The notes under the pieces were generated by a model that was given only the letters and a program-made list of their open reading frames with translations, made no database searches and had not been told where the DNA came from. Below, piece by piece: positions 41,677 to 64,000 of a stretch of DNA of 64,000 bases. The number at the start of each line of letters is the position of its first letter. Position 1 is the first letter of the stretch. Position numbers and translations under genes: made by a program. The DNA is from Octopus sinensis (taxonomy: Eukaryota): assembly GCF_006345805.1 (NCBI RefSeq), contig NW_021832840.1, positions 31,693-95,692 of the forward strand, given 5' to 3'.

Positions 41677-43132
<1,456 letters not shown>

Positions 43133-43909: not shown

Positions 43910-44945
43910 TCACATTGAAAAATTTCTCAAAATGTGTTGCAATTATCTCCACCTGCTCCTCAGCATTCAGTAAAGTTTTGCCATTTTTATCCTTGATGAT
44001 TATTCGTTATTTCCGGTTTACGTGTCGTAATAAACGAGTGCCCACATACATTTGTGAATTATCTTTTAGTTTAAATAACCCTTTAATTTTGCGGAGCAGA
44101 TCTTTTGCTCAGTCCTCTGATTTTTCTACGGATCTGGTCCCTCTGCCCCTGAAGGGCTTTTCTTTTGTTATAGTCTTTTTCGTTTAGTTCCTGTGTATGG
44201 ATTTCTTTTAACTCCTTTGCTAGTTCTGTATGTACCGTCCGATCCGTATTGGCCGTCTCCCGCGTGAATAGCTTTCTACTTTTTTTATTATGTGCTAATC
44301 CCATCCCACGAAATTCCTACTGTTTGTTTCTTCAAATGGGAGCAAATATTTTTTGTAATTTCTGTTGCATATCCACTTTATGTTTTTTTTTTCCACTTTA
44401 TGTGTTCTCAATAACATTGTTTGTAATGTTGTTATGTTTCTTATGTTTGGCCATGCTGGAGGTGACAATAACCACTCCGTGATCACTGACTAAATCTTCA
44501 TATGAGAGGGCGTTTGTCATTAATCCGGCATATAATATAATCAATTTGGTTGTATGTAGAGACTAGCTTTCCATCTTTATTTCTTCGTTCGCCCATCCAA
44601 GTGGTTATGTGGTATGAATGATGGAAGAATGCGGCACAAGAACAGTTTATTTACTGTCCAGAAATGGCCAAGTATGGGCCAAAGCATGTATCTTTGCACT
44701 GTCTTCCCATGAAGGTATCTTCTGAGTTCTTTTTTGTATATAAGTGAGAAAGGCTCATATTCGTTATACGTTTTTGATAATGCTGAGTAAAATTCATCCA
44801 GTTCGGTCGGGTTTTTTACCATTTTTCCACGTTTATACATCCAATAAAAACTATATATCTTTCTAGGTCGTGAAAGAAAATATTTCTCGAGGGGGCTTAG
44901 ATATTCCTCTTGCATTGAACGTAAGAATCTTTAGGGCAAGCATAT
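43910..44945 (-). mobile_element. RTE-like LINE AP-endonuclease region, degraded
   Basis: Across frames: ILTFNARG, DEFYSAL, TTWMG...YNQIDYII...SDH; homologous to 57700-58320. Confidence 0.7.
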
Positions 44946-45719
44946 TTACCTATATCTTCTGCTATCTAAACATTTTTCTTAATTGTTGAACGGAAAAAAG
45001 AGGCATCTCACACACTCACTAAAAGGGTGACATTTTTTGTTATTTATTATACTTTATAATTAATTAGAATTAAAAAATAATTGATACATAAACAATCAAT
45101 TATACCGGTGTATTTTCACGCTTATTATTAGTTTTTCTTGTGATGCACTATGAAATTTTGTATTTACAAAAATTAAATTTGTACACAGTATTCTTATTAT
45201 TACTAACTTATTTACAATTTTTTTTATTTTTTGTTTATTTTTGTCTATTCATTATTGTTATGTTTATTGGTTCTTTTAATCTTCTCTTATACGAAGGGAG
45301 TCGATTTGAAGGCATCTATAAATGCTGATAAACATTATTAACAGTGATTAGTGCATTTTTTGATTTAGTTTGTATATAAAGACAGTATTGTTGAATACAA
45401 TCTGTTGATTTTTTTCTTTAATTTAATCTTTATTTTATATACCGTCCAAACTAAATTATATAATAACTTTGCGTACAAAAAGAGGATTCGCCTGTAACTG
45501 GATTTTAACCCAGAGAATAAAATACCGAATGTATACTTTTGTGAATGTTGAATCACATATTGCGCATCTAACAATCACATCCGTCACCGTCCATTTGCCA
45601 GACCACATCTACAATTTCAAATTTTTCTAAAAAACTGCATTTTTCCAAGTCCAAAGTTATTCAATATATTCAATTGTTTTCAATATTACTAAGAATATTG
45701 ATGTTGAAATCCGTTTTGT

Positions 45720-45990
45720 TGTTTAATCTTTTGAAATCCGTTTTGGCCAAAAGATTCCTAGGATGTATTTCAGCTGCATTCTGTGGAAGGAATTGAGATT
45801 TTCCATTTCATGCACTGTGAGTGCCCAAGAGGAGGAGTTGTACAGTAGGACTGGTTTTACGAACATATTGTAAAGTTTGATTTTTAAAAACGCAGAAATT
45901 TTTTTGCCTCTCAACCATATGTTGTTTAATCTTTTGAGCGCGAAAGTTGCAAGTGATTTTCTTCGTATCATGTCTTCTGTATCTCCTAAG
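45720..45990 (-). mobile_element. RTE-like LINE C-terminal fragment
   Basis: KIKLYNMFVKPVLLYNSSSW...LNSFHRMQL. Confidence 0.8.
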
Positions 45991-46079
45991 AGAGTTATAT
46001 GATTATTTGATATATTTTGATAGTTACATTATTATTATTTAAGCCAAACAGAATCACCGTCTTAACCAATTAACTAACA

Positions 46080-48230
46080 CGTTCAGGTGATTCCGACACT
46101 TCTCAACAGTCGAGGCATCTTTTCACGATGTTCCGACCGTGACCCCACACACTTTCTGTATGTACGGTGAATGGTTTGTGGTCCATTTCCACGATCCCCC
46201 CCATTCGCCTCTACGAGAGACTCCAGTGTTCTATGGACAATTTCCCTATCGGTGTGGTCCTTCAGTAGGTTGATAGATCTTTCTTGAATTTTTTCGATTT
46301 TTAGCCGGTTCGTTGCCGCCAGGTTACTGCCCCAAGCAGCACATGCATAGCCTATTGTTGGCTCGATATACTGATTGTAAAGGGTCTCTACCCCTGGCGG
46401 ATAAGTTCTCCCACAGTTCCAAAGGAAGGCTTTTACAAAATTGATCTTCTTTATACAGGTTGATACGATCGATTCTACGTGAGGTGAAAAACAGAGGAAA
46501 GTATCAAGCGTTACTCCCAATATCTTCTGTGTTTTCTTTTGTGGTATTGGAATTCCGTTCAACGTGACATCAATAGTTTTCGTCCCCATCTTCCTCTTTT
46601 TCGTGAATAGAGTGACTGCTGACTTTTCGGAACATGCATGTAGTCTGTTTTCATATAGCCATCTATATAAGTAGTTCAGTATTCTTTGTAGTCTTTTCTT
46701 CGCGTATTCGACATTTACATCCCTAGATGCGACAACTATGTCATCGGCATAGGAGAGTAGTATGTCATTATTATCCATAGGAGCCGGGAGATCATTCAGA
46801 AACAAGTTTAAGAGGGTCGGGGATAAAAAGGAACCCTGGGGTACACCATTGGGCAATAAGCGTGATCTTGAACTCTCGTTCCCGACGCACACTTTCCCAC
46901 GACGTCCGCTCAAAAAATTCGCAATCCATAGCTTCATAGGTGTAGAAATATTTGTACCAAATATCTTTTGAATTAGGATCTTCCTCGGGACGGAGTCAAA
47001 CGCTTTTTCAATGTCGATAGTGCATACAATCGATTTTTCCTGCATTTTTGTGTCCTTCATTTATGAAATCTGTTAGTGTGGTAAGGAAGGAGGTCGTTGA
47101 CAATCCTTCCTTGAATCCATGTTGGAATGTAGATTGTGGGAGGAAAGGTCGAATATGTTTTAGGACCAGTTTTTCCAAGATTCTTGACAACACACATATA
47201 AGGATACTGGTCTATAGGAGCCGGGGTCGTTCTTCGGTCTTCCAGGTTTTAATATTGGCCGGATTTTTGATAGTTTCTATAAGTTCGGTATAGCGTTCGT
47301 GATTAATGACGTGTTATAGATCGTGGTTAAAGCATTTATTGAAACAGGGCCCAAGTGTTTTAGTAGATTAAGTGGAATTCCATCCGGTCCACATGAGTTT
47401 GTTTTCTTCTGATTCGAGATTGTTTCAGACACCTCTTCAGGAAGAAAATAAGTCGTCGGGGGCCCTTTGGATGGCTTTGATTTTAATCTTGGCTGTGAGT
47501 TCATTTTTTTATAAGGAATATGACTAATCTTGACACAGTGTTTCATAAAATTGTTTAGATTGAGCTGGTATGTTTCTGTTTTACGCTCGTCAGGATTCTT
47601 CAAGCGTCTCAACATCGTCCACATGGTCGAAATAGAGGCTTGTTTATTCATAGCTCTAGAGATTCGGCTGAGCTTCTTCCTTTGGACTTGGTTGGTATTA
47701 TTCGTAATAAGCATGTTTAGAGCCCTGATTCGATCGATGATTCCTTTGGGTCGATACTTTCTTTTCTTGAGGCTGATTCTTTCTCTGATTAGTTTTTTTG
47801 TTCTTGAATCATATTTTGAGCTCCCACTTCTTATACATGCTCTTCTGATAATCAAATTCCTTGCATCTATGATAGTTTTGTTGAAGCTTTCCACTGCTCT
47901 GTCCAAGGAAAAAAAATTCTCAGGGTGGAAGTTCTGGAGTCTTGAATCGACGTAGTTTGCGAAAGCATTCCAATCTGCGTTTTCGTAATCATAGAAATAA
48001 GTTGGTTTCAGTATGGGATGTGGAGAACAGTTCATTCTCATTATCATTGAGTGGTGGTCACTTCGGAGATAAGCTTACGAATTTCAAGAAACGACATTTT
48101 CAAAATAATGGAGTTATCTAAGCTACCAATTATTCCATTTCACCACGCATTATTATTGGATTGTCCGGCAACATCGTGTGAAGTAGAAAATTTTCTATTC
48201 TTCACCAAATTTTAACCAAAGATAGAAATT
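46080..48230 (-). mobile_element. LINE (jockey/I-like) endonuclease end plus RT
   Basis: SDHH, GPDGIP, DIEKAFDSV, GVPQGSFLSPTLLN, YADDI; frameshifts. Confidence 0.9.
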
Positions 48231-48414
48231 TCCTACCTGAAAATGTTAAATATTATTTAATGTTATGCTTTAATAAATAAATTTCTGTTTCTTAGGGCAA
48301 CTTTTTATGCATATTATGTCAACTTTTTTTATTTTTTAAAGCAATTTAGTTGACTTTTAAGGTCAATTTTTTACATTATTATAAGCAACTTTCCGGTTAC
48401 CCTAGTCATCATAT

Positions 48415-49600
48415 ATGAGAAACTTCGCAGATTTTGTAAAAGATTCAATTGGAGAAAGTGAATATCAACAGATAGAAAAGGTACACGGTCTGAGAGAAGG
48501 AGATGAAATAAAACCTCGCAAATTCCTCTCGGGGAATTTTTACAACCCAAAGACAAAGACTGGGATAACCCTAGTTATCAGAAAGTGTACATGAGTGGAG
48601 GGCCGATCATGAATGTTAAGATGGAGGTTGGCACCTTCGCTCGCGAATATAGACCATTTATGATAGAGCTAAAATACAAATATACGAAGAACGATCGAGC
48701 GATAATAAATACTTTGAGTCGAATGACTGACTTTAACCAGGATTTAGTGACATCCAGTCTAGCTATCTTCTTAATAAACTATACATTTGATGCTCCCGCG
48801 AATTTTGGAGACATTGAAATCACTGAAGAGTATCAGGATATCACAGAATATTCCTTAGTTGAAAAAGGTTTCAAAGTCAGAACAGCAAAGATGGCCATGA
48901 ATTTGGGAGTCTGGTGCAGAAGGAGGAAGAGCAACACTTGAAGAGTGGAGAGTTGCCTTAATGAAAGCGCTCTCGCCTGTAAGATTTGCTCATGCAGCCG
49001 AAAGAAACCCGGATGCAGTAGATCCTCTCATGGACAGATACCACACCGTGATGCGCAATTTGGACCCAGCATACCAGCCTGAGAGGTCTTTGGTCTTGAA
49101 AATGTACCAAAAGTATCTACCAGACAGAGGATTAGATAAGCTTTGCTGTCTCTTGGACAAAATGTTGTACACATGTCCTGAAGATCCGATGTCTGCACTA
49201 CGATTCTGTACTATCCCTTTCTACAATGCAGGGAATGCAGTATTGTCACGTGTAGTATCACTATGTGCAGCGTTCCCAAGGGAGCTGGAAAGAGCTGTAA
49301 TGGTAGAATCTCTATTTGCATCTGCTCATGTAAATGAAGTGAGTAGGTTCATAGGGCATTGTTTTGAAGTCCTAAATCCGGATCACTTATGCATTTATTA
49401 GAAGGGATTAGGCCTTGTTAAAGCCTCTGCTTTTAGCTCTATGTCGCTGCCTGGATACTTTATGTGTACGAGTGCAATAGCGGCAATGATAAAGCACCCT
49501 AAATTCATGTTCTCTAGGTCAATCACGCCTAATCCTCAGGCTATGGTTAATGGCTTTTTGAACGTGACCTCCATCAGGAGGGAACGAGATGAAAGGCGAT
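48415..49600 (+). pseudogene. Endogenous viral element: rhabdovirus-like (Mononegavirales) nucleoprotein
   Basis: Reconstructed across 2 frameshifts and a stop at 49399-49401: KLCCLLDKML...SALRFCTI...EVSRFI...DHLCIY*KGLGLVKASAFSSMSLP. This parallels VSV N (KIVAAVDMFF...ASFRYGTI...SYMPYLIDFGLSSKSPYSSVKNP) and rabies N (IHFRSLGLSGKSPYSS). ITEYSLVE resembles rabies ITPGSLVE. Confidence 0.75.
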
Positions 49601-50446
49601 ATGATCAAGGCACAACGAAAGAGTTACGAAGTAAATCTCACCCCTTTCATATTGTTGGCCGATTCAAAATCTTTTTGTTCACCGACGTCGACCATAACAT
49701 GGATAGACTATACTCCAGATACATTCTTTTTCGGACCACTCATTTCTCGAATTTATTCCGTAGTGATGAGCATTGTTCCACAGCAGCGTCTATCTGATTG
49801 TACCCTCGCGGGATGCCAGCTTTACATAGCACACTGTGTGATGTACCTGATTCTGGAAGCCTACCAAAGCCATGCATTCGACCCGGAAATCCAGCAAGTA
49901 CTTGATAGTTATCGAGGTCTCAATATCCGAGATCTTCATTTTCCTGATTACTTCTTGGAATGGAAGAACGCCATCGGCGATTTTTCAATTCAGAAGCAGG
50001 ATCTCCGCCTCCGTCTTTTCCTCCCCCTAATTGACCGTTCGCAGTCGGCTCACAGAAACTATTTCTGGGACCCATCTACGGCGAATCTTCTACCAAACTT
50101 CGGAAGCATTTACCTCAAGATGTACTTAGCGTCAGATCTACATTCAATTCAAAGGAATGATAGAACCATTGAGCGCTACCGAGACCTACAACGGCTTACG
50201 GAGAACGTTTTATTTGATAACTCGATCGCTCGTTCACATGATGCGCTTCTTCCTTTCAGTTCTGAGACTTTTCAGGCCGGTTCGCGAAGTCAGCTTGCAA
50301 CTCTCGTTCAAGGTTTCTTATCCAAACCAGATTCCTTAAATGTGTACATGCGCTTTCTTAAATTTGACGAAGCAATTCTGAACAACATTTTCCAGTCCTC
50401 CCCTTGCTCCCAACCTGAGGGGCAACGTCTTCTCGATCATCAGTAG
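49601..50446 (+). CDS. Endogenous viral element: partitivirus-like capsid protein ORF
   Basis: Uninterrupted intronless ORF (49589-50446, 285 aa) with ordered motifs YTPD, QLYIAHCVMYLILEA, LHFPDYFLEWKNAIG, LFLP, LLPNFGSI. These recall partiti-like capsid motifs (YVPD, xLYxxxL.yxxiLR, LpIPGPL..ff.al, LPN); judged by eye. Confidence 0.5.
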   Translation: MIKAQRKSYEVNLTPFILLADSKSFCSPTSTITWIDYTPDTFFFGPLISRIYSVVMSIVPQQRLSDCTLAGCQLYIAHCVMYLILEAYQSHAFDPEIQQVLDSYRGLNIRDLHFPDYFLEWKNAIGDFSIQKQDLRLRLFLPLIDRSQSAHRNYFWDPSTANLLPNFGSIYLKMYLASDLHSIQRNDRTIERYRDLQRLTENVLFDNSIARSHDALLPFSSETFQAGSRSQLATLVQGFLSKPDSLNVYMRFLKFDEAILNNIFQSSPCSQPEGQRLLDHQ

Positions 50447-50494
50447 CTTTAGATTGCGATAATTATTTTCGTTCTCTAATTGTAAATCTTATCA

Positions 50495-51212
50495 GGAAAA
50501 TCTTTTATACGAATGGTCCTCCCCTCATACTGCATACAGATAATGGAAAAGAGTTTAAAAACTCAAAAATGGTTAAGTTTTGTGAGGAGTTTGGGACCAA
50601 ACATGTTTTTGGGCGTCCTCGTGGACCATGGGTTCAGGGACAAGTTGAAAGGTATAATTTTAGTATTCATTCAATAGATTTAATCAGTCGATTAAAAGAT
50701 GGTTGTCTTCAACAAGTGCGTCAGAAGGAACATTTGGGAATTATATGCCATTTCTTGGAAGGATCGTATTCAGATACAATACGACCGTCCACGAGACAAC
50801 ACAAAAAACTCCATTCTTACTTTTTACTGGCTGCCAGTATCCTCCAAAAATTAATTGCGATGATTTAAATAATCTCATTGCGTTTGAACCCAAGGTGGAA
50901 GTAGTTCAGGTAATTTATTTTAATGCATGTTGATAGGCATGTCATGGTGCATTGAGGAACACAATCAGGGCAGGGGAAAAAATGCAAAAAAGAAGGAGAT
51001 GGAAGGATGATGAAACGTGTATAGGAAGTGGTGATTCTGTCCTCATAAGAGGAGATTTTAACACAAATCCGGCACATCGAACGATGCCGCTTTACGACCA
51101 GGTGGATACGACTATATATAAAGTTGTGAAACAGAATGGCGACAACTATGAAGTTGAGAATGATGAGGGGATTTTGGTAAAAAAACATTTTTCACAATTA
51201 AAAAAATTATAA
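50495..51212 (+). mobile_element. Ginger integrase core and C-terminus with two introns
   Basis: PLILHTDNGKEFKN...RPRGPWVQGQVER|FNQSIKRWL...YNTTVHETTQKTPF; introns 50652-50677 (26 nt) and 50910-50936 (27 nt) restore the frame. Confidence 0.85.
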
Positions 51213-51759
51213 AAACATTCTTTTGTAATTTTAAATGATTAGGTTTTAGAGTTAATGCACCCTTAGGGTTAGAGTTAGGGTCAATCCATCCTTATAGATT
51301 TTTTTTAATTAAAAAATTTTTTACTCAATTTTTTTATATATATTAGTTATTAAAAACATATTTTATAAAATCAGGAAATATATAAATATTTAAATTGTGA
51401 TACTTTCAGTATTTTTATTGTTGCTGTAATCACCGACATTGGAATATTTCCAATAAGTAACAAAAAACTAAATAAATAATGATTTAGGACTAATCGATAA
51501 TAGATGCACCGATTTACAAAAAAACGGAAAAAAATTGCGATGGAGGCACACCTACGGCATAGGCACACTCGTGGACCGTGACATAATATAACAATAATTA
51601 AATTCGTGTTCAGTTTACAAAAAAAGTCTAGAAAAAAATATAACAATAATGATTAAAATTTGGTAGAAATTGATCATTTTAGATTTTAGGGCGCTACAAT
51701 ACAAGATCGCCAAATCCGGGAACAAATAAATAAAAGTTTGCCATAAGAATATAAAGAAT

Positions 51760-52040
51760 AGAACTTTCTATCAAAAAATAAGGTAAAATTCAATGAATAA
51801 AGATAAATGAGAAGATTTCAAATAAACGATATAAACAGATTGAAAGAATAAACTCGCAAATATTAAAAATGATGAAATTTCAGATAATTTATTAATTAAA
51901 AGAAACTACATCGCAAAATATTCCTTCTAATCCAATTAAATAAAAAATAAAGATTGACCAAATAATGTAACAGGACAACAAGGTATGTCAAAAGAATCCT
52001 CACACGTGCCACAATTTATTAGGTTTTCAATTAATAATTG
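51760..52040 (-). repeat. Copy of the dispersed AT-rich repeat
   Basis: Aligns to 22540-22700 (gatgaa.tttcagataattt...acatc.caaa.tattcctt...cacgtg). Confidence 0.55.
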
Positions 52041-52309
52041 GGTAACTAAAAATTAAGATAATTTTAATTAAAACACAATTCTACCTAGTAGCTTATAAAC
52101 AGTGTAAATACCAGAGGGGATATCTCAATGATGGCAAATTGTGAAACAGACTTGCGAGCAGATTTTGCAGATTCGAGAAGATTGTTTCCTTGAAACTTTC
52201 GCTCCAGTAGATTTTCGAGCAGTTTGTTCAGTTCTGGCCATGTTTTTTTTTATTTCAGACAGAACCGATTCAGACGAGTTATTTTTGTTTTATATAGTTA
52301 AACAACATT

Positions 52310-54130
52310 GTGAATGAATGAATGAATTTAGTTTATTGTAATTAACAGAGAAAGAGAAAGTGACAGGAATTGAGGACGGTGATAGGACGAGACTGATGCC
52401 AAGGCAACTGAACTCTTCTGAGCTTGCGTCCAATTCATCTGTCGTAAGCCAGAGTTAATAAAGTAGGTTCATTAATTTTTGACGAGTGCAGAGAGTTTCC
52501 GATCGATAAACAGGTCGGTCACCTGAGTTCTTTTCCGGAAGATCGGATAGATTTCTCAATGACCTGTCGTATCTCCGAGGATCTGGTCTCCGCCCAGCTT
52601 GGGACGGGACCTCGCGGGTCAAGCCTGTAACGTTGAGCGACAACTCGTCTACAGGCGAGTTGTCGCCTAACTCGCCTAAATTTATTTGGCGACAACTCGT
52701 CTACGAAGAAAAATATTTTAAGGGTAAATAAAATAAAATTTTAAAACAAGTACTTTTTATTCTGAACTTTTAAAGCAAATCAACCATCAATTAGCTTAAA
52801 ATAGCAATCTACTTCAAATTCATGAAAATTTTCACATGCTATTCTCAGTTCAAGTTCCTTTTTGCAGTCTATCGCAGACACTCCATTCCTGTCGCATCAA
52901 GAAAAAATTTTTCAAATTTCAATAAAACATTTTCCACAGTGATGAAAGCTAAATGGTAGCATTTCCTCAATAATTTTCGTTCCCACGATGAAACGTCTTT
53001 GTAGGCTCCCACAAGACCAAGACATTGTATTTTCCGCCATATCATTTGGCCGAAATGGAAATTGCAGCCAAATACATTAGACGACGAAAAAACTGATTTT
53101 GTGGAGTTAATTAACCCCTTTTCAAAATCAATTAAAATAATTGCTGGTGAAGTAACAACAAGTGTCTTTATTTCTTCAAATAATGCACAGTAGGCATTTT
53201 CTGTATCGCAAACTTTCAGGAATTTTAGGAATGGTCGGAACAAAATTTGGTATCAGTGTTTCTCTTTCCCGTTGAACGAGACGAGTCAATGAACGTTCCT
53301 TTGGCAATATTTTAATGACGTCAACATTGGCTCCAATGAGGCTTCTTGACACCACATTCATAGTTCTGTCTTCTGACGCCTTTGCGGCATCTTTCAGGTC
53401 AGAAAATAGTTTCATGCTTTTTATCTCATGATCCTCAAAGGGGCCATGGTTATGAGCATTTTTTGTGCTCAACTTGTTTTGAGCATCCACCGTGCACCTC
53501 GCCCTGCATTCTCGATTTCTGCACCTCCAATAGGTAAGACCGTCTTTTTTTCTATTTGTATTATACAAATAGTTCCGGTGTAGTAAAAGTTTGCCATTTC
53601 TTTGGCTTTTAAGCAGTTCAAAGTCAGTCATAATAAAGATTAAAGTAAAAAAATTGTTGAAATTTTAATTAATTAGATTTAATCTGGTAAAAATAAAATT
53701 TTTTATTTATTTTAAGTAGGCGAGTTGTCGCCAAATAAATTTAGGCGAGTTAGGCGACAACTCGTCTATAGGCGAGTTGTCGCATAGCCATTTTCTCGCA
53801 TTTCCCGCAAATTTTCTCGAGATCTTTCGAGTAGTACCATGCTTCCATTCCGTACAGCAAGCTGGGTAGGATGGTTGCATGGAACACGAAGAGGAATGTC
53901 TTAGGATCCAGATGCATGCTTCTTAAGAGGCGGAGAGCCGCAATGGCTTTCGCTCTCTTTTTCTTGACATGCAGACGGTAGCCCGAGTTAGCGTCGATTG
54001 TAAGCCCCAGGTAGCGTATGCAACTGGGGCGCATAATTTCGGTTAGGGGCCCAGAGCTCTGATCTGATGATTTTTCGAGTTGATTTGTAGGAAAGCGGAT
54101 TTATCCATTGCTAACGAGAGCTGTTTGCTG
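52310..54130 (-). mobile_element. L2/CR1-like LINE 3' end interrupted by a MULE
   Basis: IRYLGLTID...FHATILPSLLYGMEAW at 53790-54034; (ATTC)n tail at about 52312-52328. Confidence 0.65.
52637..53789 (-). mobile_element. Mutator-like (MULE) element with FLYWCH domain and long TIRs
   Basis: FLYWCH: YLYNTNRKKDGLTYWRCRNRECRAR...HNH. MULE domain: ILIDFEKGLINS...GCNFHFGQMIWRK. TIRs of about 70 bp. Confidence 0.88.
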
Positions 54131-54149
54131 GCGCATTACTCCTTTATTA

Positions 54150-54686
54150 CCTCAATGTAGGTGAAAAGCCTCTTTTCTGAGGTCAAGGGAGAGGATGATA
54201 CATATGAGTTATCTGAGGAGGAGGAAAAAGAGCTCAAATTTCTACCAGATATATTAATAGATGAAGAAATGATGAGCGAATGTGAGCAAGAAACCAGTTT
54301 TATTACCAAGCAATTGAATGAAATAAACGTGGATGAAGAAACACCTATTATATCCACCCGCTCTCTATCACATTCAACCAAAAGAAAATACTTAGAAACA
54401 GAAGATAACTGTTTGCTAAAGACGAAATATAATGCAGTTACTGAAAGTTCATAAGAAGTGAGAGAAGAAAAATCGACAATGAAGATGATAAAAAACATCA
54501 TCTTTGATGAAATTGAAAACTGGATAAAGCTTTTGCAAGTTCAATCAATCAATTAAGTTTATTGTAATAATGAGTAAAAATAACCAAACAAACACAGAAG
54601 GTAAGCAGACCGGTAAATTTTTATACGATTTTTGGAACAACCTTTGTTTTGGAACAATTAATGTTCCAAACGAAGGTTAGACTGTA
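54150..54686 (+). mobile_element. Probable pogo/Tigger 3' end (acidic tail plus right TIR)
   Basis: Acidic ORF followed by gttccaaacgaaggttagactg-TA, a CAGT-type TIR. Confidence 0.4.
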
Positions 54687-55149
54687 ACAATAAATTACCA
54701 CAATAATGTCTTGCAATTCATGTCTGGCATTCCCTCTAGTCAAACAAAATTGGAAATAACTGTTGATGGCAGTAACGCTCTCCTCAATCAATTCTATCCA
54801 TTACTATGTACGTCCAGTCGTACTCCCGCACTTGTTTCAGTTTGTTGCAGACATGATTCAGGAGAGCCTTTCTATACTGCACATAACAAAGTTTCTTATA
54901 TTCCAGAAAGTCGTGTAAATTCATTATTTTCGAATCACCCTATATGTAAGTCAGTTTATAGAATTAATTTATAAAAGTGAAATTGCCACAACCATGAACT
55001 GAAAGATAAAATATTTAATCATTCAGTTAAGATATAATCAATAAAATCCAAAGTATCCGTCAACACGGAAAAGATTCTCATGGAATCATTATGGTAGGAT
55101 TTTCAACAGTCATGTCGGTCTCTGAATATTAGTATTACCAGCAAATACA

Positions 55150-55570
55150 GGTTTCGAAGTCCTCAAAGTAGAAAGTAAAGATTAAAAATCGGCAGTTCTG
55201 GATTAGGCTGATCGATTCTGCACACACCCAAATCCACCAACAACTGGGCAACCCAGGGCGAGGGAGGGACGTCGAAGTTGTTCAGAGACACGCAGGAAAA
55301 TATTCTGAAAAGACCGAGAAGAGTCTTGAAATAGCAATAAATAAATAGTTGGATTGTGTCAGAACACGACATTGTTCCCTCGTGCTCAGTGCCTTTCTCA
55401 TTTATTAAATTGGTCTATCGGTTGAAAAGAAGGGATACTATCGACAATATCAACGTGGAATATAGTTCTTCCTGATCGGCCAACTCTTTCTTAGCAATTT
55501 CTATTTTGCTGTCGAAGGATGATTCATTGAGGGAGTTGTAGAGTGACTCAAACCTCAAATGGTCGTCGGC
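55150..55570 (-). pseudogene. Spliced host-gene fragment, weakly INTS3-like
   Basis: 24-nt intron gtatcccttcttttcaaccgatag. QEELYSTLILSI and FLRVSEQLRR..WVAQLLVDLGV resemble INTS3 QHEEICLGLFTLIL and YLKLQDTCRTQLVWLVRELVKSGV; a frameshift is needed. Confidence 0.3.
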
Positions 55571-55789
55571 ATGTCAAAATTAATATTAAAATATTATTAC
55601 ATTTTATATTCAGAATTTGAAATATTTATGAAATCCAGTTTTTGTTTAATGTGAAAATTCAGTTGATTGTTCGTATGTGTATCATCATCTACATCCGACA
55701 TAACCCGATCTTATTAACAAATTTAAATACTTTAAAAAATATACCATTATTTTATTACTGTTAAAGCATTTAACAGTGCTTGCACGGTG

Positions 55790-56045
55790 TTAGTCGCACG
55801 GTGTTAGTCGGTATAATGAATAACCGAAAATCAAAACAACGATACCTCCCAAACGGGGTCCCACAAGGATTCTCCTTATAACCAATCCTGTTCAATTTAT
55901 TTACAAGAGATCTCCCAAATCCAAACGACGAAGATACAATCCTTTTATCATACGCTGACAATCTAATTATTGCAGCAAAACATCAAGATTACAAAGAAGC
56001 CACGTGGAAAGTTCAGGAGACGATTAACCGTATGAAGCCATGGTT
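55790..56045 (+). mobile_element. LINE RT fragment
   Basis: LPNGVPQGFSLXPILFNLF...SYADNL. Confidence 0.8.
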
Positions 56046-56190
56046 TCCCTCCTCTTCCGTGTAATCTCATATCTGATAACATTTTTGAATTCAGCGTCCA
56101 AAAATAATATAAAATTTGAAAAAATGGCCAAAATCCCAGAATAAATTTCGACTTTTTTTGACTACATAGGGGGAGGTTAAATTTGAAAAG
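56046..56190 (+). repeat. Near-identical duplicate of 59821-59962
   Basis: Starts tccctcctcttccgtgt, then about 125 bp nearly identical. Confidence 0.9.
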
Positions 56191-56524
56191 CTTTTTGAGC
56201 GTTTTTGGTTGCAAGCGGGATCTGAACTTTACATATTTCTGACTAAAAATGAGTCTTTATTTCCCGACAAAACACCCCCGAGATCCCCACGTGTGTAGAT
56301 CCAATCGACCTGATTTTTTCAGACATAAGTTTAAATATGATAGTAAATTGTATTAGCCTGTTCAACCTTTTTTGGACCTTTGTCCATGCCAAATCAAAGC
56401 CTTTTTGATAAACACGTGTTTCAATAAATATAAAGGAAATTGTTCGAATATGTATTTAAAATTGACTATTTAATGTCAGGACATGAAAATAGCACGATAA
56501 AAAAGCTCGTATTTATTGAAAATT

Positions 56525-57355
56525 TCATAGATCATGTGAAGAAAAAGTTTGACGTTTTTTCTGTCTTCTGTTTCCAAACCACCTTCCGGACTACAGATTC
56601 TGGCAAGTCAGTTTTTGCTACAATCTTCCCGATTCTTCTTTGTTTGGCTGAACGATGACTGAAAAAATATTTTCGAGGTATTCTATGGTTTTGTTATCAA
56701 AACATGTTCGTTTCTTTCTGGCTTTCGGGAGCGAATTCAATTGGGACTTGGAAATTGGGTTTTTCTTCAGAGATTCTAGAACAATCAAAAAAGAATCTTT
56801 TAGATTTTCCATTGCAGTAGTTGGGAGTTTACCCAACTCAAATCTGCATATAGTCGTTTGACACACGGGGAACCCGCCTCTCTTCATTATAATGGCCATC
56901 TCGGACTGTGAGTAACCAAAGTTCATTCTTTTAGCCTTGAAATAGTTTCCTAATTCTACCAAAGACTTTCTTTGAAGCATGTCGTCATTTACTGTTGCCT
57001 GTTCAGTAAATAGATGAGGCACATTGTCTTCCTTGTAATTATTGGAAATGGCAAGACTCAAATCGTTGACATCAGGCTGGTACAAAGTCACAGGAATTTG
57101 CTGACGAGCAATTTCATATTGGATGAAAGGCTGATTGTAATCTGAATAAGGGTTATCGAAAATTCGATAATCCTGTATGAAATCATATGAATTCATCTGG
57201 TAATGGTTTAAAAACAAATCATTGTCGGGAATCTGGTACATAGGTTGAAATGTCATGTTATCTGGAAATCTCCTTAAATTTTGGTGGTCAAAAGAATTTA
57301 AAAAAAAATCTTCATAAGGATTGCAGGCAAAAAATGTGTTATTGTAATCATTCAT
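56525..57355 (-). CDS. Divergent POU-domain homeobox gene; homeodomain needs two frameshifts
   Basis: POU-specific: ELGNYFKAKRMNFGYSQSEM...QTTICRFE...MENLK. Homeodomain: RKKRTCF...LENIF..., then in shifted frames IGKIVAKTDLPESVVR and WFGNRRQKKR. Confidence 0.8.
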
Positions 57356-57699
57356 GTTATAATTCCGATTGAAATAAAAAATGACGTCGTTTGTATTAAG
57401 TATGATAACCCCGCCGATCAGGTCAACGTGATATAAGAATTGCGTGGAATGAAATTAAATATAACCTGTACCTTTGAATAACCCAGAAAAAATTTTATGA
57501 TCGGTTTTAATAGAACTGACTAGACAAAAATTTAATCTAGTTTAGGATTGATAATTTTTTATTATAAATTATCATAATCATAATTTTTGATTCTAATGAA
57601 TATTTTAATTAAAGCAAAACAGCGTTCATCGATTTTTTAAGATAATGTTTATGATATATATGTGACCCTCAATTGCACAATGTCTGATATAACACAAGC

Positions 57700-58320
57700 A
57701 ATCATACGAACTATCTATTATGTCTTTCAATGTAAGAGGCCTTAAATCGACTTGGAAAAAACATGCACTATGTGAGGACATGAAGAAATACAGGATCTCG
57801 GTTGGATGTCTACAAGAAACCAAAGTGAAACTCGGGGATGACCAAGTCTATGGGGACTATCGCCTTATTCTGCTGCCCTCTATGGCCAAGGCTTTGTGAC
57901 ACACAAACACTTATCTACTTGTATTCATGAGGGTTATCGATATGGCCGTGGGTACAGGAACCTTCCGGGCACTCTTCTGGCTCATCTCTGTGAGACCTTT
58001 TCACTATTTTTGTGTAACAAGGCTTTCTGCCACGCTGCACGACATCGGACCACATGGACTGGAAGTAGAACAAATGGGATCGGTGAAACTACATCAATTT
58101 ACAACCAAATCGATTATATTCTTTGTCGACAGGCCGATAAGGCTGCCTTATTCGACTCCCGATCATATGGAGGATCTCGGGTTGACAGTGATCATAAAAT
58201 GGTCGTTGGATGTTTCAACATCAACATACACCATGCGCCCCTCGACGCGCAAAGACTCCCATCTGCTACAAGGAAAGATATCTCACGGAAAAACTGTTGC
58301 ACTCCTCCCTCACTCGGGAA
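57700..58320 (+). mobile_element. RTE-like AP-endonuclease remnant
   Basis: NVRGL, VGCLQETK, TTWTG...YNQIDYILCR...SYGG..VDSDHKMVV. Confidence 0.85.
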
Positions 58321-58484
58321 AACTAACAAAAATCATTGGAGAGCTATATCTCTTGTATAGGACCGGGTCTTCCTCGAAGAACACATGGGAGTCCATTATG
58401 AATGGTATCCATACGGCTGCTGACGAGTACATCGGGAAGCAACCAAATAACAATCACTCCTTTCCCGATATCTCGAGTCAGCCA

Positions 58485-59070
58485 CCTCAATACCTCATGT
58501 CGGGATACGTCCACGTATATTTTCTGTGTCAGGAGGGACGCCGCGGCCAACACGGGTGACGACACTGAGGACACTGTGGCTGCCACCAGGGCTCCGATTC
58601 CGAAGAACTTCACGGCCGGGGGAGTCAGGTAGGCTATCGTCAGGGGGAGGACGAAAAAATCAAAAATCATGATTATTAACTGCATCACATCAGTGTAGGC
58701 GACCGCGTAGATGCCCCCAAAAATAGTATAAAAAACAGTCGAAAACGCAGCAATCACCACAGAAACCACTTGGTTCATCCCAGTGATAATTTTTAGTGAC
58801 GATGCTGTATTCCTGAGGTCAAAAACAATCAACCGAGGAGGACCGCCGAACTCCACAGTAACTCGCCCAACAAAGCTGGCAGAGTCAGAAGAGCACTTAA
58901 AAGACTTAGCCGATGGGTGCCTGTACCCAGACGAGTTCTCGGTCACTTCGGAATATTTGCTCGGCCGTCCCACTGAGGTAGGCACCCAAGTTGCTAATGT
59001 GAGGAAAGAGACATGCCTGTCATTGTAAATGTCCCGACGAAGAATCAGATGTGTCGTGTATGGGATGATC
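58485..59070 (-). pseudogene. SLC5A7: High-affinity choline transporter pseudogene
   Basis: FFVGTFTMT|ATWV, SGTAEQ...WVQAPIG*, FYTIFGGIYAVAYTDVMQL, FGIGALVAATVSSVSSPVLAAASLLTQKIY. Stops, a frameshift, a large internal deletion and a 23-nt GC-AG intron. Confidence 0.8.
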
Positions 59071-59748
59071 GGTTCTTTGTTACTGCAGGATATGGCAAAC
59101 TGTGTGGGATGCCCATGATGCAGTGTGTATCCGTGTCCTTGATTTGGACCTCGAGGAATAAGATTTTGTGCGGAATGTTGTCCATTGTGATGAAACTTTA
59201 AGTAAACTCGTCGTTTCCTGTGCGGACAAACTTTTTATGTTTCGATTTGAGACGAAAAAAAATATTTGAGTTGTTTGTAAAAGCCGGAGACACCGTGAGA
59301 GTCCGTGGATTTGGTGGGGATTGCACCCCAGTACTCCTCTTGGTCGAGATGGGGGAGGGGATATTCTCTCAGGGATTAAGTTAGTCAGTTCTATTTATTC
59401 TAATGATGCACAAAATCATTTCTTTCTTTACTGTCTCTCTCTATTGGCAAAACATATGAATGGGAGTGCTGAGGGTGTTTAATAATAAGCATGCATGTGT
59501 TAATGATATCGACACAGAGCATTGATATGAATAGGGTCGTTATAATTGGCTAGTATTGATTGTCGTACTGTCAGTAATAAGGGTGACCAGAGTGTGTGTC
59601 ACTGGGCGGGGACACTACTGTGGGCGACAGATTGCCAAGACTGCCTGGAATATCTCAAATGATGTGAATTAATGAGATAAATCTAATTAGAGAAATCAAT
59701 TATAATTAATTGGCCCACTATACAACCATCAACTCCCACAACACAGGA

Positions 59749-59835
59749 ATGGCAAGAGAAGACTCGTATGACAACATGTTCAAAATACTGATTGTGGGGA
59801 ATAGCAACACAGGCAAGACCTCCCTCCTCTTCCGT
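59749..59835 (+). CDS. Rab GTPase (Rab3-like) first exon only
   Basis: MAREDSYDNMFKILIVGNSNTGKTSLLFR followed by GT; compare Rab3 [23 protein letters not shown]. No WDTAGQE exon seen downstream in the window. Confidence 0.75.
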
Positions 59836-60339
59836 GTGTTTCATATCTGATAACATTTTTGAATTCAGCGTCCAAAAATAATATAAAATTTGAAAAAATG
59901 GCCAAAATCCCAGAATAAATTTCGACTTTTTTTGACTACATAGGGGGAGGTTAATTTGAAAGGTTACTAAACCAGGTAGTTTTATACATCTACATAAACT
60001 TATAGTTGTTTGATGAACAGGCCCTCCGCAGGAGCTAGGTCGCGGTGAGCGAAGCGAGCTGCCGAGAGTCTCTTCTATAAATGAAACACCATTTAAAAAA
60101 CTAAGAGGAGTTTCTGGTATAAACACCGTCATTCATGATGATAAAAGTTTTTTTAATTTTTTTAATGTCAAAGAAAGTGAGTGTTCGGATGATTTTTATC
60201 ATGTATCATCAGAGGATATGGATGTAGAAAATATTTTAGATGTTTCAGGTAAATTTTGAATAACATATGCTAGACAACTTGGATGCTAGTGATTTTATAT
60301 TGAATTTTTCCACCTAATTTAAATTCACCATATTTAAAC

Positions 60340-60540
60340 GCATGAATAAAAAAATGAATGTTCATCAATAGAAATACGATTTTTCAATTGGGAGCGGAGT
60401 ATTTTTAGTGAATAATTGTTAGGTTAGAATTCTAAAGGATTTTGGGACAAATCCTTCCCTAAGGTTAAACCGATTTGAATCCCCATATGGAGAACCTGCT
60501 GAAGTTGTTCAAATTTTGTCAAACAATCGACTAGAGGTCT
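60340..60540 (+). mobile_element. Ginger integrase C-terminal fragment with 24-nt intron
   Basis: FSIGSG|VRILKDFGTNP after splicing 60399-60422; resembles IGSGDSVLIRGDFNTNP at about 51020. Confidence 0.55.
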
Positions 60541-60549
60541 ATTTTATTA

Positions 60550-61030
60550 TGTCGCGTCCCATGGTGGTTACGCATCCCATGCTGGCTACATGTCACCTGT
60601 CAATCAATCATTTTTACGAGGTCATTGGCTGTCAGATGTCATAATTAATGTGGTTTAATCATTCGTTACTCGTGTGGGCATATTTAATATTTTTAGCGTA
60701 TTATTCAATTTTCAACATGTCCTCTTTAAAATGTATTCCCCTGTATATGTAATAATAGGTTTTGTAAAAAATATCTCAGAATATCATACTATAGTCAATA
60801 TTTTAAATGGCCAACCTGTACAGACATCTTCAAGACAAATAAAATATAAATTAACTAAAAAATCCACTAAATTTATTGTCATTGATGACTGCTTATACCT
60901 CAAAGACGAAAGATTTCAAAAGCACAAATTTGCATGGATAATGAGAGTGAGATGCAAACTATTGCAGATTCTATTCACCGGAATAGGCATTCTGGAATTC
61001 GGCCTTTTTCCTTTTCTGAGTGACGTGCAG
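60550..61030 (+). mobile_element. Ginger-like 5' end
   Basis: TGTCGCGTCCCATG...ATCCCATGCTGGC end related to the 23340 TIR; EYHTIVNIL...KYKLTKKSTKFIVIDDCLY N-terminus. Confidence 0.6.
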
Positions 61031-61056
61031 TAAGTACTCCGAGTTAGCGTCTACCG

Positions 61057-63110
61057 TCAAGCCCAGATAGCGAATATGGCTTGTGCGGGAAGTCCTCTGA
61101 GAATCTTAGGTTCTTGCCTCGGTTTGCGCCGTGAGTTAATTTCAAGGTACGCCGACTTGTCCATAGCAATGGACAGTTGTTTACCCTGACACCAGGTCTC
61201 TATCATTCCGATGTAGCTGGAGAGACGGTGCTCGGAGAGTGCAGGGCTTTTTGAAATATCCATAATGAGGACGTCATCTGCATACAAGAGAAAAGTTGTC
61301 CGCGGATTGGGAAAGGAAGGAAAGCTGCTCATCACAAGGTTGAACAGCAGCGGGCTGAGACTGGATCCCTGCGGGACACCCCTTCGGAGATGAATATCTC
61401 TGGAGTGGAAGCCCGATTGGGACACAAAGGAGATACGGTTTGAAAGAAAGCAGTTCAGCCAGAGAAATGCCTCTCTCGTTGGCTCACATCCGCGGACCAC
61501 GTCCAATAGGTCAGAGTGGGATACGCTGTCGAATGCCTTAGAAATGTCAAGGCAGATGCAGGATAAAGTTTCGTTGAACTCGATTGCTTTCAAAGCCATC
61601 GATTGGAGAATCAGAAAACAATCGCCGCAGCTGCCCCTGAGCGGAAACCCCACTGCTGGGGCAGAAGCACGCTTTTCTGCTCTGCGAAGGAGTCGAGGCG
61701 TTTGGTCATAATTTTCCATAAGCCTCGAGATCGTTGGTATTAGACTTATGGGTCGGTAGCTGCTGGCCAGGTTAGCTGGTTTTGCAGGTTTCTTGATCAT
61801 CCGGATTTCGGCGACTTTCCAGGCACTTGGAACGTGGCTCCAGCGAAGACTAGCCGAGAAGAGGCGTGCCAAAAACTCAGACAGTTCCGGAGGGCCTTCT
61901 TTGAACATTTTCATTGGTAGCATGTCATGCCCCGGTGCGTTGTCCCTCGCCGAGAGGATGGCCCAGGTCACCTCAGCGGCGGTGATTGGGTGATGGTCAA
62001 CAGATAGGGAGTCTGCTTGGTCTATAGGACTGGCATGTGAGTTTCCCCAGCGATCCTCATGGTCCGGCAGAGGACGGTCCAGGTGATCAGCAAATATGTT
62101 GGGGATTTCCTCCACCGACGCAGGCATTCCAGCTGAGTTCGATAGTTCTGGTGCCGGAGAGTTCACGAGATGATTAGAGAGTCTGTGTGAGGCTATCCAG
62201 AAGTTTGGGTTCCTGTGATTAAGACCAGAGCAGGCCTTCTTCCACATCCTCTCAAGATCTTTCTTTCTTGTGAGTTCAATTTTGTGGTTGAGCAGAGAGA
62301 TTTCCGACCTTAGGGTACCTTGGTCCGTTGGGTCGGCACAGCGTTTGAGCTTGTTTCGCAGGCGTTTCTTTTCGCCCAGAAGTTGGAGAGAGTTGGGGTT
62401 TGATGTGTAATGCCCTTGCTAGTTGGGCGCACCCTCCTAGCGTGGGCTTCCAAGTAGAGTCGCATGAAGTCCGTCAATTCGGCGCCCGAGTTGTCGATGT
62501 CCGAGGTAGATTGATAGCTGCCTGGGCGTACGTTGTTGCGAAAGAACAAGTTCAGAGCATAACGGTAGTGCGCCCAGTTGATGTTCGAAAGGGTGTATCG
62601 TGGTGGGCAACGGATTTGGGTGTCTACCGAGACGTGGACACAGACCTGCATTGGCAGGTGGTCGCTCCCAATATCGTCGAGTACTATTGGTTCTCCCATA
62701 AGATTCGCGACTGATTGAGAACTCAGTGCTACGCAAAGGTTGTCCCAGCCGAATGGGGAGCGGTGGTTCCGGGCTTTCGAGGTGCGGACACAGACGTCTA
62801 GCCTACCTGCCGCTCTTTCAAGTAACCGGCCGTCCCGATTGGTCACGCGACAACCAAATGCCGTGTGTTTGGAGTTTAGATCACCGATGAGGAGGCAATG
62901 ATTTGAGCTGACAAAGAAGTCTTCGATAAGACCGATGCATGGAGCAAGGTTTTTGCAATATATTCCGCCAACTTTTAACCAAAAGCGCTGGGTTTTAATC
63001 TCTAGCGAGATAAATTCGCATAGGTTCCGTTCGATAGTCTTGAGGTTACGTGTCTTGAGATTTTGTAAATACCCAGGCTTGTATTTGGGATTAAATATAT
63101 TCGATAACAA
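61057..63110 (-). mobile_element. LINE ORF2: AP endonuclease plus RT
   Basis: LIGDLNSKH, GSDHLP, APGHD, YRPISL, DISKAFDSV, GVPQGSSLSPLLFN, YADDV; frameshifts. Confidence 0.92.
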
Positions 63111-63299
63111 AAATTAAAATCGATGCCAAAGCAGAATGAGCTTTAAAACCGATTTCATAAATAAAAATAATATTTTAAAATTTATAATTGATATTTTAGA
63201 ATAATGAGAAAAAATCTAAATGCTTCATAATTTATAAAAATGTCAAAACAAAAATCTTCTGAAGGAGCAAGCCTGTCTGCACAGTTCATTTTTGATTAG

Positions 63300-63584
63300 A
63301 AAACCTAATTTTAGAGATTAAAACGAAAAAATAGCAATGAGATCTGTCAAATTATTACCCCCCTCACAACCTAAACCAAATTAGCGTTCAGTATTCATTG
63401 ATTTTACTTTTTCTATTAAGGTCTACTTATAAATTATTTTATGGGATTCAATGGAAAACTTAAGTTATTTCAATTTTAAATCATGTTAAAATTTTAAATA
63501 ATTTAATAAATATATTTGTTGATGATAGGCTTGTTAGGTGTCAAAGTCGCGTCTAGCGCTCGGTCGCGCGCTGCGCTCGCGACA
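63300..63584 (-). mobile_element. Ginger-like terminal fragment
   Basis: Reverse complement of 38001-38285; ends ...CGCGACA. Confidence 0.65.
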
Positions 63585-63585
63585 T

Positions 63586-63960
63586 ATTCCATCCAAGTTA
63601 ATAGTTCGGTGTCAATAACAGAATAAGTTAAGTTAGATAATCTCTTCTTATTGGAGAAAATAGGATCAGTAGACATTATTTTCTCTTTTCCAAGTCTTAA
63701 ATCGTTCACAGCCCTTCGAGATATTTTTTTCTTCAAAACAGAAGAAAAAAAGTAAGCTATACGGTCCATCGTGAGACTTTTGTTCTCCTCCATGTACGCA
63801 ATAATCCGACGTTTTTCAGTAAAAGACAATCTTGTGCACTTACGCATGTTAAATTTAGCGTGGTTGAAATATTTTATATAAAAAATAGTTTAACAAAAAA
63901 AATATTTTTAAAAATTAATGGCGAGATTTAGAAAATGGCGAGCAATAGAATATTTATCAA
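63586..63960 (-). mobile_element. pogo/Tigger (CENP-B HTH) N-terminus
   Basis: RLSFTEKRRIIAY...IDTELLTWME; tggcgag subterminal repeats as in the 27095 element. Confidence 0.75.
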
Positions 63961-64000
63961 AATTTACTAGAAATTTTTAATTTTTTGAAAAATATGTGGC

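Follow-up and report, generated by a model that had tools for sequence, protein, structure and literature searches.

Background

How viral RNA enters the loci that produce antiviral small RNAs, and why it lies there in antisense, is an open question, usually answered by random trapping followed by selection. The closest described setting is the uni-strand Piwi-interacting RNA (piRNA) clusters of Aedes aegypti, which, in the sections of the published account drawn on here, hold sequences of several virus families in antisense together with transposon pieces, rhabdovirus N and G genes being common; these non-retroviral endogenous viral elements (EVEs) give rise to antisense piRNAs, composites join non-adjacent parts of one virus, the mobile partners are long terminal repeat (LTR) elements, and the clusters are few and large (PMC8048955). 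Parts of a second report describe piRNAs from an endogenous RNA virus in a mollusc (PMC6085071), while the available portions of PMC12953835 and bioRxiv 10.1101/2023.11.03.565523 hold nothing decisive on the present locus. Here we analyse a 64,000-nucleotide (nt) stretch (the window) of the Octopus sinensis assembly GCF_006345805.1 (contig NW_021832840.1, positions 31,693 to 95,692 of the forward strand), in which a putative rhabdovirus-like nucleoprotein (N) gene is joined directly to a putative partitivirus-like capsid gene, beside mobile elements and a cassette derived from histone genes. Contigs and loci of the assembly are cited by our own numbers (C and L). In contrast to the mosquito clusters, the present locus directly joins two virus families and has non-LTR partners, and the cassettes are many, small and dispersed, with a fixed boundary at a histone gene start. 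The mosquito analogy drawn in the initial annotation of the window is therefore partial, given a likely dicyemid host and non-LTR partners.

The site-specific non-LTR retrotransposons R2, CRE/SLACS, Utopia and Tx1 also, as we understand them, insert again and again at a single position within a multicopy gene family. The site at histone H2B described below differs from theirs in that the cargo is mostly viral RNA, lies on the opposite strand from insertions of long interspersed nuclear elements (LINEs), and shares its position with several LINE families. In U6/LINE-1 chimeras and twin priming, as we take them to work, an inverted piece arises when a staggered cut supplies a second primer. R2-type enzymes jump between templates with 1-2 complementary bases in vitro, joining the retroelement 3' end to another RNA in sense with 0-2 shared bases, according to the part of PMC8857657 used here. 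The chimera in the window differs from the R2-type and LINE-1 cases in having four templates in a row, two of them viral, and at its sister loci the second primer would copy foreign RNA in place of RNA from the element. A likeness also exists to clustered regularly interspaced short palindromic repeat (CRISPR) arrays, in which, as we understand them, foreign sequence is added beside a promoter at a fixed boundary as a possible heritable memory; however, the cassettes have no repeats (a search for direct repeats at their junctions found no repeat unit), no fixed spacer length and no Cas genes, and use a reverse transcriptase and not an integrase, so they are not members of that class. In a literature search whose coverage left out most subscription journals, we found no report of dicyemid EVEs, of direct joins between two virus families or of viral capture at histone promoters.

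Results and discussion

Two viral genes meet at a single base

Searches of the genome against itself returned at least 22 matches for the capsid-like protein and at least 43 for the N-like protein, and these natural copies served as rulers for the window. On the plus strand, N-like sequence (48415-49560) directly abuts capsid-like sequence (49560-50395). DNA identity with seven N-only copies of the same genome stops at 49556-49560, and four capsid-only copies align starting at 49560, at about codon 11 of the capsid-like gene; the virus-virus junction is therefore placed at 49560. That the two coding regions lie on the same strand without a spacer had been recognized in the initial annotation, which set the junction too far downstream, at about 49590-49630. 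Inspected for microhomology, as had been proposed, against the copies in its own genome, the junction shows 0 inserted bases and no more than one base common to both sides. An in-frame N-capsid fusion protein is excluded, as the reading frames of the two genes do not match, and the overlap of the plus-strand open reading frames (ORFs) at this point (N-like, 48507-49797; a 292-aa capsid-like frame, 49568-50446) is mere read-through.

The junction occurs in four places of the assembly (C9311, C10060 and twice on C11370), which are counted as one event because they are 98.3-99.8% identical over 7-22 kb. It is also spanned by a 1,740-nt contig of run X1 (short reads) that covers 48608-50333; the viral part is not covered in runs X2 and X3, which are uninformative either way. 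No empty allele of the locus was found in the assembly, whose four places stem from the one event. This base-exact join of two unrelated virus families is real, an artefact being very improbable. About 19 kb including the chimera (window 44830-64000) is present twice in tandem on C11370, either through duplication or through assembly of haplotypes.

Origin of the two genes

The N-like gene is very probably a rhabdovirus-like nucleoprotein gene, truncated at its 3' end. An intact 582-aa N frame exists on C6088, and by tblastn the window matches its residues 1-386 with 77-90% identity over two main frames. A word-based homolog search with the intact N found nothing, and profile searches alone worked: Pfam Rhabdo_ncap (PF00945) matched 6 of 17 N copies (best E 6.7e-4, under the curated cut-off), and a profile built from the N copies matches N of vesicular stomatitis virus (VSV) at E 0.008 over 167 positions. 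The genome also contains 33 L matches and rhabdovirus G pieces (Rhabdo_glycop_FD, E 9e-9); the single L copy tested matches chains 6ueb and 5a22 (VSV L) at E 1e-82 or better, and other families at 1e-7. The structural model of N is of low confidence (predicted local distance difference test, pLDDT, 36.5), and the fold search from it was uninformative. One premature stop is common to all four junction-bearing places, and the window copy has frame breaks. On C6088, the intact N (L061:1257-3932) is followed about 130 nt on by a 265-aa ORF, possibly the next viral gene, with no cassette nearby. Elsewhere, a 32.9 Mb scaffold carries a further, separate L fragment of Mononegavirales type (C23:23139756-23141653, L152), probably an EVE of the large-genome host.

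The capsid-like fragment, which lacks the first ~10 codons and the 3' third of the gene, probably belongs to a partiti-like virus. A word-based homolog search with the ORF again found nothing, and profile searches alone worked: a search of 1.84 billion proteins gave 19 matches, one of them a repetitive outlier that was dropped, and 14 were 405-464 aa long. All 10 relatives looked up (271-444 aa) lie on short contigs of 1,265-1,546 nt, in line with the 1.3-1.6 kb single-gene segment expected for a partitivirus capsid. For one relative, the top three Atlas results are partitivirus-type coat clusters of Pisuviricota (0.93-0.94, 167-177 shared features), which provide a lead only; the window's own fragment gave nothing above 0.89 in the same resource. 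The genome holds three matches to an RNA-dependent RNA polymerase (RdRp; domain PF00680) that we take, from its motifs, to be partiti-like. The 5' untranslated region (UTR) of one of them matches that of a sister capsid lineage (score 38, reached in 0 of 5,000 shuffles); a second capsid lineage and three N controls showed no match to the RdRp, and the window copy has lost its own UTR. The capsid model is of low confidence (pLDDT 36.3) and the fold search from it gave no match; a locus-level search in viral and metagenome contigs gave no confirmed relatives. The earlier call of two viral genes stands, well supported for N and moderately so for the capsid. Two further loci (C12471:140153-141881, L149; C12462:283680-285155, L150) line up, on one strand, pieces of partiti-like RdRp and of R4-type retroelements with a capsid 5' end, forming another multi-template array, and a third (C12603:183100-188750, L148) has three tandem copies, at 2.25 kb spacing, of a capsid-like piece followed by a CRE-type piece.

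A retrotransposon end behind the capsid gene

Directly behind the capsid-like piece, on the same strand, lie two pieces of one non-LTR retrotransposon, presumably of CRE type given its restriction-like endonuclease motif. The first is an 18-nt match (50396-50413, plus strand; 13-nt exact word, chance ~1e-4) to an internal part of the element, ~600 nt upstream of its end. The second is the natural 3' end (50414-50477, plus strand), consisting of the last codons, the stop and a short UTR, and six copies, 91-99% identical to it, stop at nearly the same position; these 64 nt are the predicted start of reverse transcription. There follows the right part of a Ginger-type DNA transposon (50478-51583, plus strand; Pfam rve), the target of the chimera insertion and itself within the cassette, since other copies continue across 50478. 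This piece has an integrase gene with a short intron and a TGT-type terminal repeat, and its left part is missing. A Ginger downstream of the capsid gene had been noted correctly; its spacing is 82 nt from the end of capsid homology and not about 50 bp, with the two CRE pieces in between. Four two-ended copies have 5-nt target duplications. By what we take to be the defining features (a retroviral-type integrase, TGT-type repeats and a 4-5 nt target duplication), the element is assignable as Ginger, Ginger1 and Ginger2 not being distinguished. Replacement of the cassette's left part by Ginger through microhomology was considered and dropped in favour of a normal insertion with a 5-nt target.

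The order on one strand is thus N, capsid, internal CRE piece, CRE end, Ginger. This layout, in which an element's 3' end adjoins the target and sense-oriented foreign RNAs precede it, fits target-primed reverse transcription with template jumps, and because the capsid piece runs directly into the CRE 3' end, a CRE-type enzyme likely made the complementary DNA (cDNA). The sharp junction suits the initial proposal of template switching by a retroelement reverse transcriptase, with the source of the enzyme shifted from the LINE or Ginger then named to the CRE-type element at the 3' end. The suggested genome-wide search for other EVEs yielded, among the matches listed, 71 viral places that reduce to 45 events; one on a large scaffold was dropped and 44 were used. 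In 7 of these 44 events a same-strand CRE piece is found no more than 200 nt from the viral 3' end, and none has an opposite-strand piece there; random points give 0.4-2.0%. The CRE piece native to the cassette accounts for three of the seven, so four remain. No preference for either strand is seen at viral ends for LINEs with an APE-type endonuclease (2:1 and 0:3).

One such LINE lies upstream of the N-like gene as a bystander (46028-48070, minus strand; Pfam RVT_1; 45 genome matches). Described earlier as intact-looking and about 200 bp away, it is 5'-truncated (other copies extend beyond 48070), carries a stop and frameshifts, has its tail at the far end, and ends 345 nt from the start of N. 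Between the two sits the 336-nt 3' end, with terminal inverted repeat, of a DNA transposon that we take from its motifs to be a hAT element (48069-48404, plus strand; 40 matches), placed by flanking frames and a common terminus in other copies. Opposite strand, distant tail and intervening hAT end exclude this LINE as the source of the enzyme.

A histone-derived cassette

At least 40 places carry the sequence that adjoins Ginger on the right (51584-52300), and many viral places have it downstream. It begins with an AT-rich cassette core (51584-52134; at least 40 places, 44 matches from 40 of 402 candidates scored). Next come, on the minus strand, the 5' stub of a histone H3 gene of ~35 codons (52136-52241), identified by tblastn with a natural H3 frame and side-by-side comparison with the native gene, and an H3 promoter remnant (52244-52310) that faces the chimera, with its TATA-like box kept and its upstream motif displaced by a LINE tail. 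Judged by position and common motifs, the remnant would read the chimera in antisense. A search of Rfam over 44000-56000 found no family.

On C2235, C13428, C10250 and C1083 the core leads to tandem histone clusters. Dispersed derivatives consist of a captured piece, the H2B promoter, the core, the H3 stub and the H3 promoter, the two promoters being directed at the captured piece. Pfam confirms H2B; H3, H4 and H2A were named from full frames by features that we take to be diagnostic, the short H2A, H4 and mis-framed H3 pieces being without Pfam recognition. The promoters are predicted from position and from a motif and a TATA-like box found before H2B, H2A, H3 and partly H4, and transcription of the cassettes is on balance probable. 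In the window, Ginger inserted into the cassette and the chimera then into Ginger. The window is a modified member whose own transcription is less certain than that of direct fusions, because its H2B promoter is gone and only the H3 remnant is left. A short-period satellite stands directly behind or before several cassettes (C12598, L069:6253-10000; L188, L226, L228).

Repeated antisense capture at the start of H2B

Several viruses have repeatedly been taken up in antisense at a fixed histone site, as seen in the anatomy of the cassettes, their junctions, the orientation bias and the independence of the captures. The best 40 of 53 candidate H2B-promoter copies were examined; because the query came from a virus-fused copy, the denominator is biased and the orientation is not. 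These 40 copies form 24 junction groups, native H2B being one of them (9 copies). In 11 of the 24 groups, N, G or L replaces H2B at the boundary, which is the predicted transcription start: 9 use the main boundary, which lies 14 nt ahead of the start codon, and 2 a second boundary (for two groups, the scored match stops 105 and 572 nt short of the boundary and the viral frame was judged to continue). The others comprise one N behind a short LINE end, four ORFs seen next to viral genes elsewhere, three LINEs, two satellites and two unassigned sequences. All 16 viral or virus-linked groups point into the promoter. Among the nine groups complete to the boundary, the first T of the native site is retained in all nine, three bases are retained in five, and the fourth in none. 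Two ORF families, of 491 aa (L064:3304-4776, C12637) and 131 aa (L183:689-1081, C12600), recur beside viral genes and at the H2B boundary; they have no Pfam match and are possibly further viral genes.

Seen from the viral side, 8 of the 44 events have, no more than 1.25 kb from the viral 3' end, a cassette piece oriented to read it in antisense; among 60 control loci the count is 0 (p 0.0007). Up to 4 kb ahead of the cassette cores, 27 viral places are antisense, two of them the window's, and none is sense, the direction of transcription being inferred and duplicate copies kept in all these counts; the antisense to sense ratio there is 19:5 for DNA transposons and 35:21 for retroelements. Behind the cores there is no bias (viral 1:2, DNA transposons 4:7, retroelements 26:33). 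The histone-promoter cassette thus lends unexpected support to the view, one of two options offered initially, that the locus traps viral sequence.

N copies of different events differ at a proportion of synonymous sites (pS) of 0.70-1.0, that is, saturation, versus a nonsynonymous proportion (pN) of 0.004-0.12; synonymous sites are saturated between capsid-like copies as well. Duplicates of one event differ by 1-3%, with a ratio of nonsynonymous to synonymous rates (dN/dS) of 0.5-0.7 on few changes. Saturated synonymous sites with low pN indicate divergence in replicating viruses before separate captures, three of which took place at the H2B boundary.

LINEs use the same site. The copy at the H2B start on C12441 has a target duplication of ~15-19 nt, and the tails of five different LINEs border H2B at 20-25 nt ahead of its start codon. 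The viral junctions lie within the span of such a staggered cut, on the promoter side, and two filled loci retain the 3' part of H2B 0.9-1.1 kb further on. More generally, histone promoters form a LINE hot spot, with several families at the H2B start (L280, C12441:30600-32200; L195, L227, L246, L281) and tails that also abut the H3 and H4 starts. Piwi-domain genes are present on the small contigs C9497, C8702, C12468 and C7758, the clade of their proteins being presumed from motifs.

Host of the locus

The assembly holds scaffolds of more than 200 Mb, on which a second copy of the window's proteasome gene occurs, and the small contigs appear to stem from another animal, whose genome has very short introns and was assembled together with the large one. 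There are two types of 18S gene, one of 1,667 nt and 45% GC on a small contig (C1618:6101-7767, L165) and one of ~2.6 kb and 63% GC on large scaffolds (L166-L176), which we take to be dicyemid and cephalopod, respectively. A myxozoan host was dropped, as the myxozoan 18S primer words known to us fit no 18S copy well. Introns in the window, read from the frames of the proteasome gene, are ~24-29 nt long, and GC per kilobase is 26-52%. Dicyema introns average 26 nt in the portion of PMC2222250 used here, and 38 nt in that of PMC6736024, which also gives a GC content of 36.7% and 49% repeats. In introns, GC and repeat-richness the window agrees with a dicyemid, so its host is likely a dicyemid co-assembled with a cephalopod. 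The window also contains a proteasome ATPase gene (Rpt5-type, 42050-43132) and a divergent POU-homeobox gene (56618-57454), both duplicated with the locus.

Proposed mechanism and alternatives

The reading we prefer, with a probability of about 0.55, is that the chimera was made as one cDNA by a CRE-type reverse transcriptase, inside a histone-derived cassette whose predicted promoters would read captures in antisense. In the course of events that we infer, enzyme, single event, transcription, function and host included, a CRE-type element would have nicked the Ginger lying within the cassette; copying would have started on the element's own 3' end, jumped to the internal piece of the element and then to capsid RNA and, near the 5' end of that RNA, to the mRNA for N of a co-infecting virus. 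Loss of the left junction and of the H2B promoter would have come later, followed by duplication of the region. In sister cassettes, the promoter-side end left by a LINE-type cut at the H2B transcription start likely served as the primer for viral RNA itself; if viral mRNA was copied from that end, as an analogy with twin priming, in our understanding of it, suggests, geometry alone would always place the virus in antisense to the promoter. The cassettes may feed a Piwi-type small-RNA pathway and be kept by selection. That the two-virus chimera is one cDNA seems somewhat favoured, and an antiviral role of the cassettes is tentative.

Several observations weigh against this reading. On the left side of N the hAT end abuts, and no target duplication or left junction survives. 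The window has no H2B promoter, and its H3 promoter, without the upstream motif, lies 1.8-3.8 kb from the viral pieces. Of the 44 viral events, 36 have no cassette piece so oriented within 1.25 kb. The orientation counts include haplotype and duplicate copies, and one virus-linked ORF is sense-oriented in front of a promoter. Finally, the capsid family had no match in Pfam or the Protein Data Bank (PDB).

The strongest alternative, which we place somewhat below even odds, concerns function: the cassette would be a physical hot spot with no defensive role, where LINEs cut open histone promoters, abundant viral mRNA is copied, antisense orientation is a by-product and the insertions decay neutrally. 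Repeated LINE insertion at the H2B start and a priming geometry that by itself yields antisense both agree with it, as do the near-neutral decay of duplicates and the loss of promoter parts from many cassettes, the window's included. However, DNA transposons, which insert either way, share the bias in front of the cores and not behind them, and viral pieces up to 3.7 kb away keep theirs. This front-only bias of DNA transposons, together with the bias of distant viral pieces, suggests selection, with the caveat that duplicates inflate the counts.

It is less likely that the window records two separate captures at one hot spot, N having come first and a capsid-CRE cDNA later, at or within N, or a deletion having joined the two; neither co-infection nor a virus-to-virus jump would then be needed. 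Repeated insertion at one boundary is a fact of these loci, and sister cassettes stack pieces in non-genomic order, such as a virus-linked ORF before N on C12637 and C12598. Against two captures, the capsid 5' end is nearly complete, as for an enzyme running off its template; all pieces lie on one strand, with no target duplication and no 3' part of N left downstream; and all four places have the junction in common.

Copying in one pass by the CRE-type enzyme also compares well with the improbable prior ligation of retrotransposon, capsid and N fragments by an RNA ligase, followed by ordinary target-primed reverse transcription: a junction with no inserted and at most one shared base would suit it, and the accessible part of PMC8857657 states pre-ligation for LINE-1 chimeras, but three ligations would be required, one of them joining two parts of the same element 600 nt apart. 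An assembly artefact or a non-viral capsid-like ORF is the least probable by far, since frame breaks typical of long-read error and the want of a curated family match are outweighed by the four junction places and the run X1 contig, and by relatives that fill contigs of 1.3-1.5 kb, the 5' UTR in common with a partiti-like RdRp and the saturated capsid synonymous sites.

Conclusions

A fixed junction at a histone gene start that has been hit independently by many viruses provides a mechanism that would yield antisense orientation directly. If the host is correctly assigned, these sequences are a first look at rhabdo- and partiti-like viruses of dicyemids, and mining this assembly for EVEs of the host would misassign most copies. 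A doubtful but far-reaching extension is that the cassettes form a promoter-polarised, site-specific memory of RNA viruses in a highly reduced animal parasite, in which LINE cuts at histone starts would prime the copying of abundant viral mRNA and so set it in antisense behind a strong histone promoter, captures would stack, and their transcripts would guide Piwi against the virus. If true, an animal would have assembled a heritable, CRISPR-like antiviral system out of histone genes and LINE enzymes, with the chimera in the window as one of its multi-entry records.

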